Shown in pieces: positions 3,776 to 39,107 of a stretch of 64,000 nucleotides of DNA. The translations under genes and the position numbers were made by a program. The notes beneath the pieces were generated by a model, which worked only from the letters and a program-made list of their open reading frames with translations, had not been told where the DNA came from and ran no database searches. Position 1 is the stretch's first letter. Each line of letters opens with the position of its first letter. Origin of the DNA: Escherichia phage JEP6; sequence record MT764206.1, one strand, 5' to 3'.

Positions 3776-3828
3776 TTAATATCCTCTTTGTTTTGGTTTA
3801 TTTTATCAAAAAATTTATAAAGCAATAT

Positions 3829-3844
3829 AGGAGCCGAAGCTCCT
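3829..3844 (-). terminator. hairpin AGGAGC-CGAA-GCTCCT
   Basis: GC hairpin with CGAA loop downstream of small ORF 3883-4023. Confidence 0.35.
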
Positions 3845-3882
3845 ATCCGCATAATACGCCATACAAAGGCTCGTTAGAGCTT

Positions 3883-4023
3883 CTAAATTTTTATGCGCTT
3901 ATATGTTATAGTTCCTTCTGCTTTAGCTTTATCGTAAGACTCTTTAAAGCGTCTCATCATTTCTACTTTAGAGGAACGAATTTTATTATAATCTATTTCA
4001 GAAGTCTGGTGTTCATCTTTCAT
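3883..4023 (-). CDS. hypothetical small protein (46 aa)
   Basis: ATG overlaps stop of ORF 4020-4226 (ATGA); followed by hairpin. Confidence 0.3.
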   Translation of the reverse strand: MKDEHQTSEIDYNKIRSSKVEMMRRFKESYDKAKAEGTITYKRIKI

Positions 4024-4226
4024 AACTGCCACCATTTTTTGACTTGATAAGAATCAACCCACACTTTCATATTAGGGTCTGCTCTTACAATAGGAGGATT
4101 AACTTCTTTAATTGAACTATCATGGTATTCTTTTTCAGAAATTTTCACGCAAAGATGACCGTTCAAAGATTCAGTAAATCCTGCATTAATTTTAAGACGC
4201 TTGAATTTTACGTGTGTAAGCATCAA
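4020..4226 (-). CDS. hypothetical protein
   Basis: ORF track 68 aa; co-oriented, coupled to neighbours. Confidence 0.4.
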   Translation of the reverse strand: MMLTHVKFKRLKINAGFTESLNGHLCVKISEKEYHDSSIKEVNPPIVRADPNMKVWVDSYQVKKWWQL

Positions 4227-4509
4227 TCATATCCTCAATCTGCGATCTAGTAGTCTTCCAAAGAATACTGATGAGTTCATCGTTATATGGCTGTTTTAGA
4301 ATATCCCGACTTTTCTTGATAGCATATTCGTATTGAGCAAAATTATTATTTTCAGCTGCGATCTGAGCGTGCTTATAAAGACGATTCAGTTCGCGTTTGT
4401 TTTTAGACAATAACTTATTTGCTTTTCTTTCTGCTTCAAGACGGTTCTTTTCTTCAATAGAAGAAATAAGCTTTTCCACTTCATCATTAATTTCGGGTTT
4501 ATCAGTCAT
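4192..4509 (-). CDS. hypothetical protein
   Basis: ORF track 105 aa. Confidence 0.5.
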   Translation of the reverse strand: MTDKPEINDEVEKLISSIEEKNRLEAERKANKLLSKNKRELNRLYKHAQIAAENNNFAQYEYAIKKSRDILKQPYNDELISILWKTTRSQIEDMIDAYTRKIQAS

Positions 4510-4510
4510 A

Positions 4511-4729
4511 TTATTTCTCTAATATAAAATAAAAATCATCATCTGTTAAATGATACCGATAGTTTAATTCTACACCATTAGATTTAAAAGCGGTATCATA
4601 CGGATTTTCTGGATCAATATCAATGTCAAGAGCTAAAACTTCCCTGAGATACATTTTAAGTAAATAGGGAATAGCTTCAACTTCAGGTATTTCTTCCAAG
4701 AATCCGGAGAGGTTAATCGTTAGCCTCAT
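4511..4729 (-). CDS. hypothetical protein
   Basis: ORF track 72 aa; directly downstream of gene 55. Confidence 0.5.
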
Positions 4730-5270
4730 ATAAAAAATCCAAACTAGGAGAATCGTCTACAACACTTTTCTTTTCAGCCCCTGGTGTTCTATAGGTTGAT
4801 TCTTCGTAATGCGTCATTTTATCGTAGATGTCTTGAATAAAAGTTTCATCTACTAACGCAACCATATCGTCGTCACGACTGTCATAGACATTGTGAACGA
4901 AGTAACTATATTTCTTTGCAACTTCCTTACGTTCTTTTTTAATACGTTGGACGAATGCATTAAAACAAGCTTGAGTTATATACGCATGTGGGTTTTTATA
5001 TTTCGTTTCATCAAAATTATGAAGCCCCTTAATAGAAGCTTCTATACCATCTGCAATCATTTCTTGTTTCCAAGACTGGGTGTATCCTGAAAAGTTGAAA
5101 CGTTTAGATAAGCCTTCTGCAATAAGCATAATGGCTAATCCGATAGTATCATTCTGACGAACTACTTTATTTGGGTCTTTATTATTTGCTAATTCTGTTT
5201 TCCAATCAATAATAGCTTGTAAAAGCTCTTTATTGTTTACGTAATTATATTTAGGCTTAGTTTCTGACAT
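4713..5270 (-). CDS. 55: late-transcription sigma factor gp55
   Basis: 185 aa from ATG at 5270 ([23 protein letters not shown]...) matches recalled T4 gp55; GAGGTG RBS; track ORF starts 2 codons upstream at GTG. Confidence 0.9.
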
Positions 5271-5307
5271 TTTCACCTCTTAGCTCAATTCATAGATCTA
5301 TTATATC

Positions 5308-5337
5308 ATAATATTTGAAGATCTATCTTAAAGCATA
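5308..5337 (-). promoter_or_regulatory. possible MotA-box-type middle promoter upstream of gene 55
   Basis: minus-strand TATGCTTTAA followed 14 nt later by TATTAT; spacing is marginal. Confidence 0.2.
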
Positions 5338-5348
5338 GAGGATATCAG

Positions 5349-5618
5349 TTATCTAAGTAAACAGTATGCTTGGAATACTTTCTCCATCATCTTTTTAAAT
5401 TCATGAATATCTATATAATGACTAGTTAAATCAGCATGATATAAAAAGTCTAAAAACTTTTCATGTGTGCTAACATATTCGCTTTCATTTAATTCAGAAA
5501 CATGGCTTTCCCAATATCCAACACCAGTCTTATTTGGGAAAAATGAAATTTTCATGTATTGGTCAACATAGAAAATGCCATAATTTTCAATAGTAATAGA
5601 AATATTAATAAATTTCAT
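5349..5618 (-). CDS. hypothetical protein
   Basis: ORF track 89 aa. Confidence 0.5.
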   Translation of the reverse strand: MKFINISITIENYGIFYVDQYMKISFFPNKTGVGYWESHVSELNESEYVSTHEKFLDFLYHADLTSHYIDIHEFKKMMEKVFQAYCLLR

Positions 5619-8011: not shown

Positions 8012-8125
8012 TTAATTAATTAACCAAGCATTGATAAGTACTAAACTATACTGCGAATAAAATTCTGGACCAAAATGAAAAATCATATCATTTATAGTAT
8101 CCATAATGTAATTCAATTTAATCAT
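8012..8125 (-). CDS. possible small peptide (37 aa) downstream of nrdG
   Basis: internal ATG of track ORF 8012-8236; fills the 115-nt gap after nrdG; weak RBS. Confidence 0.25.
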   Translation of the reverse strand: MIKLNYIMDTINDMIFHFGPEFYSQYSLVLINAWLIN

Positions 8126-8588
8126 GTTTCCACACCCCATCGGTATTTGACCAAAGTCGCTGATTATCTGATCCTCGCCACAACTTTTTAGTCGGAAGAT
8201 TTTTCTCATACTTCCCATCAATAATAACATCAACATATTTAAGCATTTCTAGTTGTTTAATATCTTCAAACTTATATCCTGTCCACAACCAAATGCTTTT
8301 ATTGGGATAAAGATTTTTAATAGTTTGAACCACAGAGTGAATCACGTCTCTGTTATCAGGATAAAGAGGGTCACCTCCAGTTATAGTCAATCCTTCTATA
8401 TAATCATTATTCAAACATTCAATTAATTGCTCTAGTGTTTCACCAGTGAATGGAATACCATTTCTAGCATTCCATGTTGATTTATTATAACACCCTTCGC
8501 ATTTATGCAAACATCCAGTAACAAAAAGAACGGTCCTGCACCCAGGACCATTAACAAAATCGCAAGGATAAAATCTATCATAATTCAT
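8118..8588 (-). CDS. nrdG: anaerobic ribonucleotide reductase activating protein (radical SAM)
   Basis: 156 aa; radical-SAM cysteine cluster CLHKCEGC; overlaps nrdD stop. Confidence 0.9.
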   Translation of the reverse strand: MNYDRFYPCDFVNGPGCRTVLFVTGCLHKCEGCYNKSTWNARNGIPFTGETLEQLIECLNNDYIEGLTITGGDPLYPDNRDVIHSVVQTIKNLYPNKSIWLWTGYKFEDIKQLEMLKYVDVIIDGKYEKNLPTKKLWRGSDNQRLWSNTDGVWKHD

Positions 8589-9864
8589 TGGTGTTTAACC
8601 CTATGCATGATTTCTTTATTTTTACCGAGATTAAATCCGCGTTCGTTCGGATTTCCCAAATAACCACATGTTCTTCTTATTGTGTTCATCTTTTTAGGAT
8701 CAGTTTCTCCACAAATAGAACAAACAAATCCGTTTTCAGTAGGAGTCATTTCATGGGTGCTTCCGCATGTAAAACATTTATCTACTGGCATATTAACACC
8801 AAAATAATCTAAATGTTGTGCAGCATAATCCCATACGGCCTCAAGACCTTTTAAGTTATTTTTCATATCAGGAAGTTCAACATAAGAAATGTGACCACCT
8901 GTCGCAATGAAATGATATGGCGCTTCACGAGAAATCTTTTCAAACGGAGTAATATTTTCTTCTACTGAAACATGGAAACTATTAGTGTACCAACCTTTAT
9001 CGGTAACATCTTTTACGCTTCCATATTTTTCTGTATCAAGTTTACAGAAGCGATAACAAAGGTTTTCAGCAGGAGTCGAATATAAACTAAAAGCAAATCC
9101 GGTTCTTTCAGTCCACTGTTTAAGATGGGCATTCATTTTAGTTAAAATTTCCTGTCCAATATCACGACCGACAAGAATATTCAATTCATGAATACCAATG
9201 TATCCTAAAGACACTGAACTTCTACCGTTTTTAAATAACTCAATTATGTCGTCATCAGGTTTAAGACGAACCCCAAATGCACCTTCTTGGTAAAGAATAG
9301 GAGCAACAGTCGCTTTAACTCCTTTTAAGGAACTAATTCTACACATCAAAGCTTCAAAACACAAATCCATTCGTTCATTGAATAATTCAACAAATTTCTG
9401 TTCATTGAACTGTGTTCCAATATAAGAATCTAACGCGATGCGAGGAAGATTCAATGTTACAACACCAAGATTATTACGTCCATCAAGAATTTCATTGCCA
9501 GTCGAATCTTTCCATACGCTCAAGAAACTACGGCAACCCATTGGAGAAACAGGAACAGATGAACCAGTGATAGCTTTATTATTCTTAGCTGAAATAATAT
9601 CAGGATACATCCTTTTGCTTGCGCACTCTAGAGCAAGCTGCTTAATATCATAGTTCGGATCGTCTTTGTAAAGATTAACACCTTCTTCAACAAACATAAC
9701 AAGCTTAGGGAAAATAGGAGTTATCCCATCACGACCAAGACCTTTAATACGATTTTTCAGAATTGCTTTCTGAATCATTCGTTCAGTCCAGTCAGTTCCC
9801 GTACCAAATGTAATTGTTACAAAAGGCGTTTGTCCGTTTGAACTAAAGAGAGTATTTACTTCAT
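8585..9864 (-). CDS. nrdD: anaerobic ribonucleoside-triphosphate reductase NrdD, exon 2
   Basis: C-terminal glycyl-radical motif RRTCGYLG and zinc-ribbon CFTCGSTHEMTPTENGFVCSICG; frame continues from exon 1 across a 1045-nt intron giving ...DAFQAYE-Y-EVNTLF... and a 605-aa product. Confidence 0.85.
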
Positions 9865-10909
9865 CATTATATTCAGCATGAGTCGCAAATTCATGCCCGT
9901 TTATATGAAACAACAAAATTTGGATAGTCCATAGATATGCAACGTTCTTTTATAGTGCTAGGATGAAAATTTAGCGCTTTAGCTGCTTCTATATAAGACG
10001 TATACTTAATACCGTCAACAACCACATATTCAGGAACTTTATGAATAGTAGTCTTAATACTCAAAACAAGAGGATGAGTTTCGACTTCACTTTCAGTGCA
10101 ATTTAAATATTCCGCTGCTTTTTTAAAACTTCTAAAAGTTTTATTTTTAAGCTTTATCGATACTTGTTTTTTACTTTTTCGACTATTGATATTATTTTGC
10201 ACATGTTCCTTAGATCTTCCGTTTTTAGCATAATATTCAGCTACAGAAGATTTTATATTGTTTTTATGAGATTCGGATAACACTTTACCCTTATGAGCAT
10301 CTCTTAATTTTTGAATATGTTCTTCAGTATCCGGATGCTTATAAAACTTTTTACCGCCTATGGATTTATTTAAACATTTTTTGCTATAAAAATATTTACG
10401 TATGACCTCTTCTTCATGTTTTAATGCATCTTTATAACTATCAAATGTTTTTAAAATTATCCATTTAGTAGGTGTATCAGTTTTTAAGCGTTCATTTATA
10501 TACTTAGATGACGTTGTGTAAGTTTTCCAGTTTGTGGGCTTGTTTTTAATTGTTCTAAATTTTTTATAACCGATATAAATGTCGCCATTAGAAAACTTAA
10601 CTAAGTATGTAAATGCGTCTTTATCTTTTATTTTAGTACAACGTCTTTTTATCCATTTCATTGTTTCACCTCGTATTCATAAGATAATCTTATTTATACA
10701 AGATGACTGCTGCATGTCGCCATGCAGATTAGACTATATCTTCATCTTTCGATGCCGGCCGTTTCGAATAGCATTAGCTTCTATTCTACACCGCTACATT
10801 CATCACGGTTAGTCGTTAGGCATTTAGTTCAAAAGAACATTTAGCACGGGATTGTCTACTAGAGAGGTTCCCCGTTTAGACCGGTTTTACATGAGCCTGA
10901 ATTAAATTA
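9865..10909 (-). mobile_element. self-splicing group I intron in nrdD (sunY-type), carrying a homing endonuclease ORF 3' of the ribozyme core
   Basis: exon 1 ends in U that can pair (U-G) with internal guide GCUCAU just inside the intron (P1); intron ends in G; removal restores the NrdD frame; boundaries inferred to within a few nt. Confidence 0.75.
9891..10661 (-). CDS. GIY-YIG homing endonuclease (I-TevII-like), intron-encoded
   Basis: 256 aa; N-terminal GIY-YIG-type motif FTYLVKFSNGDIYIGY; lies entirely inside the nrdD intron. Confidence 0.8.
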   Translation of the reverse strand: MKWIKRRCTKIKDKDAFTYLVKFSNGDIYIGYKKFRTIKNKPTNWKTYTTSSKYINERLKTDTPTKWIILKTFDSYKDALKHEEEVIRKYFYSKKCLNKSIGGKKFYKHPDTEEHIQKLRDAHKGKVLSESHKNNIKSSVAEYYAKNGRSKEHVQNNINSRKSKKQVSIKLKNKTFRSFKKAAEYLNCTESEVETHPLVLSIKTTIHKVPEYVVVDGIKYTSYIEAAKALNFHPSTIKERCISMDYPNFVVSYKRA

Positions 10910-11447
10910 ACTCATACGCCTGAAACGCGTCGTATACGTCTTTTTCTGTTTTAGATTGGGCATAATTCAACGCATCAGCGATTTGCCATTTTTCTGCATC
11001 CTCAATATGTTTTGCATAGGTGCGTTTAACATATGGAGAAAGTACTTTATCTACATTCGCAAAAGTCGTTCCGCCATATTGATGAGAAGCAACCTGTGCA
11101 GTAATTTGTGCCATAATTGCAGTAGCAACGCCGATTGATTTAGGAGTTTCAATCTGCGCATTACCGAGCTTAAATCCGTTTTCAAGCATTCCTTTTAAAT
11201 CTACTAAACAGCAATTAGTAAATGGAAGAGCAGGGGAATAATCAATATCATGGAAATGGATAATTCCGCTTTCATGCGCTTTCATAATAAAAGACGGGAC
11301 CATATTTTTGGCAATGTGTTTAGACACAATACCAGCCATAAGGTCCCGTTGAGTTGGAAAAACACGAGAATCTTTATTAGCATTCTCGTTTAAAAGGTCT
11401 TTATTAGTTTTATGAATCAATCCTTCAATTTCTTTTTCAATTGTCAT
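10910..11447 (-). CDS. nrdD: anaerobic ribonucleoside-triphosphate reductase NrdD, exon 1
   Basis: N-terminal 179 codons plus 1 nt; track ORF 10902-11447 runs 2 codons into the intron before a stop. Confidence 0.85.
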
Positions 11448-37823: not shown

Positions 37824-37900
<77 letters not shown>

Positions 37901-37903
37901 TAA

Positions 37904-38569
37904 TTAAAATTTCATTTTTCGACCTTTAAACCATCCTTCTGGAATTGGGTCAGTTTTCTTAATACGTTTAGAAACTTTTTCATCTAATGAATGAATCCAC
38001 ATCATACCAAATTGGGAATTCTTTTCGCCCTGTTGGTGTTTATTTCTGGCGTGAGATTCTTTCATTTTATTAATAGTTTCAGGAGTATGATGCTTATTTA
38101 AAAATCTGCTATTATTTAAAAATTTTTCCCTGTATTCAGGAGTTGACCACAAGCGTTTAAATACATTTGAACCATGTTTACGATATTTTTCTTGAAGTAA
38201 AATATCATTTTTAAAACGTGACTTAAACGATTTAGCTCCTTTTAAACTAGCGTCTTTCTTCTGGTTTAGCATCCCAGGAATATTTATATGATCCCATCCA
38301 CCTTCACCACCTAATTTCAAATTATAAACATCAGGGCGCTTTAAAAACTCTTCAGTCACAATATTCTTTTCTGACTCAAACATAGAGGTTTTATCGTCAA
38401 AGAACTCTAATATTTCTTTAGAAAAATTTTCTATACCATACTTATCTTGGGCTCTTTTTAATAATTTACCAGAACCCATATATCCATCATCTAAATTTTC
38501 GGTAGAATGCACACCAATATAAATTTTATTATTAATTTTATTTGTTATTTTATAAGTGTAATGGAACAT
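37904..38569 (-). CDS. segB: GIY-YIG homing endonuclease (SegB-like) within the tRNA cluster
   Basis: 221 aa; N-terminal YTYKITNKINNKIYIGV...GYMGSG GIY-YIG motif; located between tRNA-Ile and tRNA-Arg. Confidence 0.7.
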   Translation of the reverse strand: MFHYTYKITNKINNKIYIGVHSTENLDDGYMGSGKLLKRAQDKYGIENFSKEILEFFDDKTSMFESEKNIVTEEFLKRPDVYNLKLGGEGGWDHINIPGMLNQKKDASLKGAKSFKSRFKNDILLQEKYRKHGSNVFKRLWSTPEYREKFLNNSRFLNKHHTPETINKMKESHARNKHQQGEKNSQFGMMWIHSLDEKVSKRIKKTDPIPEGWFKGRKMKF

Positions 38570-38610
38570 AAATATCTCCTATTTCTAAGAGTATTTATGT
38601 TCCCAAAATA

Positions 38611-38682
38611 TGGCCCTGGGTGGAATTGAACCACCATCTGGCGATTATGAGTCGCTTGCTTGAACCTTCCAGCTACAGGGCC
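38611..38682 (-). tRNA. tRNA-Ile (anticodon CAU; lysidine-type AUA reader, Met not excluded)
   Basis: manual fold: acceptor GGCCCTG/CAGGGCC, anticodon loop CTCATAA, T-loop TTCAATT; no encoded CCA. Confidence 0.7.
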
Positions 38683-38688
38683 TTGATA

Positions 38689-38761
38689 TGCTGATTGACG
38701 GAATCGAACCGCCGACGTCCTCATTACAAGTGAGGTGCTCTACCTACTGAGCTAAATCAGC
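38689..38761 (-). tRNA. tRNA-Thr (anticodon UGU)
   Basis: acceptor GCTGATT/AATCAGC, D-arm GCTC-AGTAGGTA-GAGC, anticodon loop CTTGTAA, T-loop TTCGATT. Confidence 0.85.
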
Positions 38762-38768
38762 GAAATTA

Positions 38769-38855
38769 CGGAGGCGATAGGATTTGAACCTATGAGTCGC
38801 CGGAGCGACTGCCGGTTTTCAAGACCGGTGCATTAAACCACTCTGCCACGCCTCC
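38769..38855 (-). tRNA. tRNA-Ser (anticodon UGA), type II with long variable arm
   Basis: acceptor GGAGGCG/CGCCTCC, anticodon stem CCGGT/ACCGG with loop CTTGAAA, long variable arm, T-loop TTCAAAT. Confidence 0.8.
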
Positions 38856-38857
38856 AG

Positions 38858-38931
38858 TCTCCGTGGCAGGATTTGAACCTACGACATTCTGCTCCCAAAG
38901 CAGACGCTCTACCAAACTGAGCTACACGGAG
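38858..38931 (-). tRNA. tRNA-Pro (anticodon UGG)
   Basis: acceptor CTCCGTG/CACGGAG, D-arm GCTC-AGTTTGGTA-GAGC, anticodon loop TTTGGGA, T-loop TTCAAAT. Confidence 0.85.
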
Positions 38932-38941
38932 TAAATTAAAT

Positions 38942-39015
<74 letters not shown>

Positions 39016-39020
39016 AAATT

Positions 39021-39107
39021 TGGTGCGAGAAGTGGGACTCGAACCCACAAGGAAATCATTCCGCAGCATTTTAAGTGCTGTGCCTTTACCAATTTGACCA
39101 TTCTCGC
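39021..39107 (-). tRNA. tRNA-Leu (anticodon UAA), type II
   Basis: acceptor GCGAGAA/TTCTCGC, anticodon stem CAGCA/TGCTG loop CTTAAAA, long variable arm, T-loop TTCGAGT, CCA encoded. Confidence 0.8.

Follow-up and report, generated by a model that had tools for sequence, protein, structure and literature searches.

Organization of the nrdD locus

The window (the whole stretch of Escherichia phage JEP6 DNA that was analyzed, 64,000 nt) matches hundreds of Tequatrovirus records in the region considered here, as a T4-like phage. The gene order of the region follows that of T4 (gene 49, nrdD, nrdG), with nrdD divided by an insert, and all features of this intron lie on the minus strand. The nrdD gene is laid out as follows.

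10910..11447, minus strand: nrdD exon 1, 538 nt, codons 1-179 and the first base of Tyr180 (ORF list, spliced translation, Pfam NRDD)
9865..10909, minus strand: group I intron, 1045 nt (RF00028, covariation, junction compared with 620 intron-less records)
9865, minus strand: intron-terminal G at the 3' splice site (sequence, spliced translation)
8585..9864, minus strand: nrdD exon 2, 1280 nt including the stop codon (ORF list, spliced translation, Pfam)

The first-pass annotation had placed a group I intron at 9865-10909 and had described the NrdD reading frame as stopping two codons into it, and the sequence agrees with both: beyond exon 1, the minus-strand frame of 11447..10910 runs on in the insert with GAG TTA ATT TAA (Glu-Leu-Ile-stop). 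When the 1045 nt of the insert are excised, GAG T is joined to AT GAA GTA and the protein reads DAFQAYE-Y-EVNTLF, with the Tyr codon built across the junction. The result is the 605-aa NrdD that had been anticipated, with a single terminal stop, a Pfam NRDD match (1-562/562, 572 bits) and a further match to Pfam Gly_radical. The last base of exon 1 is U (10910) and the last base of the intron is G (9865), likewise as annotated; the predicted ligated exons read GAGU followed by AUGAAG, where exon 1 ends in GCGUAUGAGU and exon 2 starts with AUGAAGUAAA. The placement of the junction also matches the uninterrupted nrdD of intron-less relatives. An artificial 300-nt spliced junction aligned in one piece to 620 phage records, whereas in the intron-bearing records the alignment of the same query was broken exactly at 150/151, so that comparison, and not the reading frame alone, fixes the junction.

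The 443-aa 'ORF' at 8585..9916 (minus strand), which opens with the TTG at 9916, consists of exon 2 with a backward extension into the intron, where it overlaps the last part of the endonuclease gene. In several GenBank records the downstream portion of nrdD is annotated from this kind of TTG start, and a join was used in none of the records examined. Many phage records in GenBank show this nrdD as two genes, the second of which begins at a spurious start. On the other side, nrdG (8118..8588, minus strand) abuts nrdD with overlapping stop and start codons, and between the two genes there is neither mobC, which T4 has, nor segH, which T6 has. Elsewhere in the window, the Rfam scan located a cluster of seven tRNA genes at 37827..39107 (minus strand); tRNA gene clusters are known in T4-like phages.

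Secondary structure and covariation of the intron RNA

A focused Rfam scan of 9700..11100 gave a match to RF00028 (Intron_gpI) at 10710..10945, covering the full model (1-253) with 70.9 bits against a gathering threshold of 50 (E=1.2e-17), and so confirmed the group I core by covariance model. The gathering-threshold scan of the whole 64-kb window reported the seven tRNAs and not the intron, because the speed filters had dropped it; the 1.4-kb search recovered it. Group I introns that contain an ORF can be lost in this manner to the speed filters of default whole-window Rfam scans.

Helices were derived by comparison with T4 and then placed on the JEP6 sequence. Their order is P1, no P2, P3, P4, P5, P6/P6a, P7, P7.1, P7.2, P8, P9, the ORF, P9.2 and P10; P3, P4, P7 and P9 are listed from their helix coordinates.

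10910..10915, minus strand: P1 exon strand AUGAGU, with U.G at the 5' splice site (covariation between position -6 and the guide)
10898..10901, minus strand: P10 intron strand UUCA, partner exon-2 UGAA at 9863..9860
10891..10896, minus strand: internal guide sequence GCUCAU, the P1 intron strand (helix placement, covariation)
10707..10884, minus strand: ribozyme core (helix coordinates, pair counts, Rfam alignment)
10884-79/10760-55, minus strand: P3
10875-70/10851-46, minus strand: P4
10814-10/10736-32, minus strand: P7
10727-21/10716-10, minus strand: P9
9876..9896, minus strand: P9.2 hairpin GCAUGA/UCAUGC, with the ORF stop UGA inside its 5' strand

P1 forms as had been proposed, the exon AUGAGU (10915..10910) pairing with the intron GCUCAU (10896..10891) and U10910.G10896 lying at the splice site. 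Across five lineages that share this insertion site (described below), exon position -6 and its guide partner are A-U in two and U-A in three. In these five introns as a whole, 95.2% of cells were paired, compared with 34-39% when the partners were slid, and both-sided changes were found in 28/63 pairs, compared with 4-7 when slid; 0/500 shuffles equaled the observed values of pairing and covariation. Six related phage introns gave a similar picture (93.5% of cells paired versus 35-40% slid, and 28 pairs with both-sided changes versus 3-9). Both-sided changes occur in P7.1 (ACCG/CGGU) and in P7.2 (GAAUAG/CUAUUC), and among lineages they occur in 5/6 pairs of P9.2. The 3' ends of the five same-site introns are all AUG or UUG. 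P10 is the weakest element, with 3-4 bp per sequence and 80% of cells paired. With P2 absent and P7.1 and P7.2 located between P7 and P3', the intron is, as judged from its predicted helices, of an IA-like subgroup. In the record OL960581, an annotated 'rho-independent terminator' (L014 674..701, equivalent to 10700..10727 of the window, minus strand) corresponds to the ribozyme's P9 hairpin.

The state of the helices bears on a reading in which the ribozyme is degenerate and nrdD a pseudogene, which would be tolerable since class III RNR matters only anaerobically; nrdD is dispensable during aerobic laboratory growth. However, all helices are intact and have been kept so by compensatory changes between lineages, the P7 and J8/7 strands of the catalytic core are invariant among the compared introns, and the exons are intact, their product being 99.7% identical to T4 NrdD, so that we regard this reading as extremely unlikely.

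The same structure weighs against a second reading, in which a free-standing endonuclease cassette has broken nrdD into two genes, each translated on its own, without RNA splicing. The two nrdD CDSs of many GenBank records, where an in-frame TTG within the insert serves as the start of the second CDS, would accord with such an arrangement, and a functional split RNR gene has a precedent in phage Aeh1, where mobE splits nrdA (cited in PMC3653736). Nevertheless, the JEP6 insert contains a complete, covarying group I core, P1 and the terminal G fall exactly at its boundaries, and these boundaries restore the exact uninterrupted sequence of the 620 relatives. In addition, the TTG at 9916 falls within the endonuclease ORF, the upstream reading showed no Shine-Dalgarno motif, and T4 has a counterpart at this site that the literature treats as a self-splicing intron (PMC2988022). 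Two separately translated genes are thus very unlikely. We conclude with high confidence that nrdD of JEP6 is interrupted by a mobile group I intron, predicted to be self-splicing, and that its insertion point is, to the nucleotide, that of the T4 sunY/nrdD intron.

The endonuclease gene and its control region

10691..10698, minus strand: TATAAATA, T4 late-promoter consensus upstream of the endonuclease ORF and inside the hairpin (sequence)
10666..10706, minus strand: hairpin with the Shine-Dalgarno GAGGUGA of the endonuclease ORF in its 3' strand (fold of -17.8 kcal/mol)
9891..10661, minus strand: homing endonuclease gene, 256 aa, I-TevII-like, with a putative N-terminal GIY-YIG domain and a C-terminal NUMOD1/HTH region

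The 256-aa ORF that had been reported 3' of the core lies between P9 and P9.2, and its designation as a GIY-YIG homing endonuclease is supported by its relationship to I-TevII and by matches above cutoff to two Pfam models. BLASTP aligned it with T4 I-TevII over 257 aa at 56% identity (E=1e-101), evenly across the domains (52-57%), and the two proteins fall into the same 50% cluster; the residues conserved with I-TevII include FTY-x9-YIG, HEE and LNKSIGG. The match to SegE_GIY-YIG (PF19835) is a marginal pass (26.6 bits against a cutoff of 25), NUMOD1 scored 25.3 bits against 22.8, and PHROG 314 'homing endonuclease' was matched with E=3.6e-29. The generic Pfam GIY-YIG model (PF01541) gave no significant match (10.3 bits against a cutoff of 22.6, E=0.9). 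In GenBank, endonucleases of the JEP6 type are annotated variously as 'homing endonuclease' or 'intron-associated endonuclease 2'.

No relative of the endonuclease with a solved structure turned up when PDB chains were searched by sequence. The AlphaFold model, which was based on a 3-sequence alignment, is weak (pLDDT 60; 55-67 for the N-terminal domain and 82-90 for the C-terminal domain), and a Foldseek search of the PDB with this model gave no significant match. The best hits were small proteins with E values of at least 1.1, which we take to be members of the GIY-YIG superfamily, and the DNA-binding domain of I-TevI (1i3j) appeared in the output with a probability of 0.85 but with E=1.9. 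The modeled N-terminal order, strand-strand-helix-strand-helix, presumably fits the GIY-YIG fold. The modeled fold is consistent with GIY-YIG as a candidate fold.

Upstream of the ATG, the hairpin has a stem of 11 bp (10706..10696 with 10676..10666) and its fold of -17.8 kcal/mol corresponds to z = -4.2, with 0/200 shuffles as stable. In OL960581 the same TATAAATA motif bears a late-promoter annotation. Because the motif sits within the hairpin, late transcripts would lack the 5' arm of the hairpin. I-TevII of T4 has a late promoter and a corresponding hairpin, an arrangement reviewed in PMC2988022, and we infer that the JEP6 endonuclease would be subject to promoter and hairpin control of this kind.

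The 19 nt immediately before the ATG, UAUGAAUACGAGGUGAAAC (10662..10680, minus strand), are identical in the JEP6 and T4 alleles within diverged surroundings. They also resemble the homing site UAUGAGUAUGAAGU(A/G)AA. An operator for autorepression by I-TevII has been proposed (PMC2988022), and the block would fit this operator, but it also holds the Shine-Dalgarno sequence and one arm of the hairpin.

Introns at the same nucleotide in T4 and in metagenomes

The comparison with the T4 sunY/nrdD intron made in the first-pass annotation stands for the insertion site and the architecture, but not for identity, as the JEP6 intron is a distinct allele whose ribozyme is only about 72.5% identical to that of T4. 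Both introns lie in the same gene at the same nucleotide (after nt 538, inside Tyr180, with an exon 1 of 538 nt), have equal P1 sequences, lack P2 and possess P7.1 and P7.2. In both, P9 and P9.2 bracket the ORF, whose stop codon falls within the 5' strand of P9.2, the endonucleases are homologous over their full length, and a late-promoter motif is accompanied by a hairpin hiding the ribosome-binding site (also PMC2988022). The lengths differ slightly (1045 nt in JEP6 versus 1033 nt in T4, with ORFs of 256 and 258 aa), and the sequences, and partly the lengths, of P6a, P7.2, P8 and P9.2 differ, with GUAGAG/CUCUAC in T4 P9.2 replaced by GCAUGA/UCAUGC in JEP6. The exons show scattered, apparently silent differences, whereas the introns differ throughout; the contrast is also seen in the proteins, with 99.7% identity between the NrdDs and the 56% given above between the endonucleases.

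Each of the two alleles is homogeneous. A megablast search with the T4 intron retrieved 25 records at 99% identity or more, none of the JEP6 type, and the JEP6 allele was found in about 44 records at 95-100% identity, so the two types form separate tight clusters and intermediates are absent. A word-indexed search of 5.8 billion proteins with the endonuclease returned only these two close clusters. No description of a second nrdD-intron allele was found in a literature search; the JEP6 allele appears to be uncharacterized in the searchable literature, yet is present in about 44 GenBank genomes.

More distant relatives were obtained by an exhaustive HMMER search, which found full-length relatives of the endonuclease at 38%, 38% and 29% identity; a peptide-pattern scan of viral_contigs for the endonuclease gave no relative. 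The three relatives, in the metagenome contigs L015, L019 and L022, lie inside nrdD at the identical site (...LE-Y-E(V/I)NT...), in introns that match RF00028 with 65.9-81.5 bits and carry the I-TevII-like ORF between P9 and P9.2. Their endonucleases are 28-38% identical to that of JEP6 and the host NrdDs about 50-59%, and their P1 is UUGAGU/GCUCAA, a compensated change relative to JEP6. In L022, the gene downstream of the endonuclease (3783..5612) encodes 609 aa compared with 426 aa for exon 2 of JEP6, and the spliced NrdD of 787 aa implies that a further insertion or an extra domain may be present. Since at least five lineages share the nrdD site, the association of intron and site is old. 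From these comparisons, the JEP6 intron is best seen as a sister allele of the T4 intron and as one of at least five lineages at one site.

Relationship to other phage introns

The T4 td intron, which encodes I-TevI, belongs to the same ribozyme family as the JEP6 intron, and its 3' end, CUGAA(U/C)AUAAUG, is nearly equal. It differs in residing in another gene with another guide sequence, in having P2, in P7.1, P7.2 and P8, and in the location of its ORF in the P6 loop, I-TevI being a different GIY-YIG enzyme. A second site within nrdD (between ...SPMG and CRSF...), about 110 codons downstream, is occupied in phages JSE (L004) and HMD-6 (L005) and in Vibrio phage 1.084.O (L006). The cores of these introns are 82-85% identical to the JEP6 ribozyme (nt 14-203), but their ORFs occupy the P6 loop and carry HNH or winged-helix annotations instead of being I-TevII-like. 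In all three records nrdD is annotated as two CDSs.

Compared segment by segment, the JEP6 and T4 nrdD alleles have different affinities.

P3-P6 segment: JEP6 is 94% identical to T4 td (including a 42/42 run); the T4 nrdD allele is 77% identical to td
P7.1 segment: JEP6 is 23/23 identical to HMD-6 and the Vibrio phage; the T4 nrdD allele is 78% identical to these
P7.2 segment: JEP6 is 62-67% identical to HMD-6 and the Vibrio phage and 33% to T4 nrdD; the T4 nrdD allele is 86% identical to td and JSE

The run of identity with td covers intron nt 30-71, that is P4-P5-P4' (10839..10880 of the window, minus strand; L002 9981..10022 in td), in which T4's own nrdD intron is 77% identical. The loop of P7.2, AAGCUAAUG, is common to JEP6, HMD-6 and the Vibrio phage. 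These affinities suggest that exchange of RNA domains between phage introns may lie behind the mosaic segments, and intron domain shuffling was reportedly shown experimentally for T4 by Bryk and Belfort in 1990. We rejected the 42-nt identity with td as proof of recent gene conversion; because conservation of this region extends throughout the intron family (85% in JSE over the 47 columns of P3-P6), this identity is suggestive, not proof.

A broader proposal, which we advance tentatively and with some doubt, is that the JEP6 allele is a natural chimera, with P4-P5 of the td type and P7.1/P7.2 of the second-nrdD-site family, and that it encodes a functionally distinct isoform of I-TevII, perhaps with another recognition or cleavage position, which competes with the T4 allele for the empty site. 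With the three deeper metagenomic lineages taken into account, the nrdD site would then be a long-lived arena of several ribozyme/endonuclease lineages replacing one another.

Distribution, mobility and decay

At the one exact site, 620 records are intron-less, about 44 have the JEP6 type and 25 have the T4 type. In eight other carriers of the JEP6 allele, the intron is 99.6-100% identical to that of JEP6 (1045/1045 in two), while the flanking exons (491 + 465 nt) are only 92-97.6% identical. Two of the eight carriers belong to the genus Mosigvirus, and the allele is therefore found in two genera, Tequatrovirus and Mosigvirus. Since the intron is far more conserved than its exon flanks across genera, the pattern indicates that the intron has probably been transferred recently, spreading horizontally by homing. 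Sandegren and Sjöberg (cited in PMC2993671) reportedly concluded in 2004, in the words of their title, 'recent transfer of old introns', with which the signature of spread agrees.

All carriers examined have 13 nt on each side of the intron in common, and the flanks vary beyond. A cluster of synonymous differences upstream of the intron was considered as an allele-linked co-conversion tract and rejected, since only these 13 nt per side are shared and the wider flank varies; a tract limited to 13 nt on each side may perhaps exist.

The endonuclease ORF of JEP6 is full-length; about 18 listed records have an identical copy, and about 40 have one of at least 99% identity. Frameshifted copies, in which the ORF is in two pieces, were found in three related phages, vB_EcoM_F1, FN and 236Ecol005PP. 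In vB_EcoM_F1 (L010), a 1-nt insertion at intron nt 785 splits the ORF and the intron is otherwise identical. Given these copies, the endonuclease gene can decay without loss of the intron, as expected from the homing cycle.

Decay of this kind could also have overtaken the JEP6 element itself, so that the intron would still be spliced out while its endonuclease has lost its activity or has ceased to drive homing, an immobile remnant passed on vertically or by general recombination. Besides the three frameshifted copies, the unmatched generic GIY-YIG model would favor this, and endonuclease decay has a precedent in T4's own nrdB intron (PMC2988022). On the other hand, the ORF is full-length and nearly invariant in the records cited above, the motif residues of I-TevII are conserved, the promoter and the hairpin are retained, and the intron is 99.6-100% identical in carriers whose exons differ by 2-8%, a second genus included. 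We therefore consider an immobile remnant unlikely and retain the mobile intron as the explanation.

Proposed course of splicing and homing

For splicing, endonuclease activity, the position of cleavage and the timing of expression, we infer the following course by analogy with T4. The nrdD gene would be transcribed as a precursor, on which ribosomes would halt two codons into the intron. The ribozyme would fold, with the guide GCUCAU and the exon AUGAGU forming P1, and an exogenous guanosine bound in P7 would attack after U10910. The freed exon 1 would then attack after G9865, positioned by P9.2 and P10, to give the mRNA for the 605-aa NrdD. [quoted passage not shown] In a mixed infection, the endonuclease would cut intron-less nrdD, and repair would copy the intron in.

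The element is in these respects a textbook case of a classic, well-understood kind, for which no new biology is needed. Its endonuclease would be a further isoform of the poorly characterized I-TevII. Two sharply diverged alleles at one nucleotide of almost identical host genes, together with at least three deeper lineages at this site, offer a natural system for the co-evolution of ribozyme and endonuclease, for competition for one target and for exchange of RNA domains.
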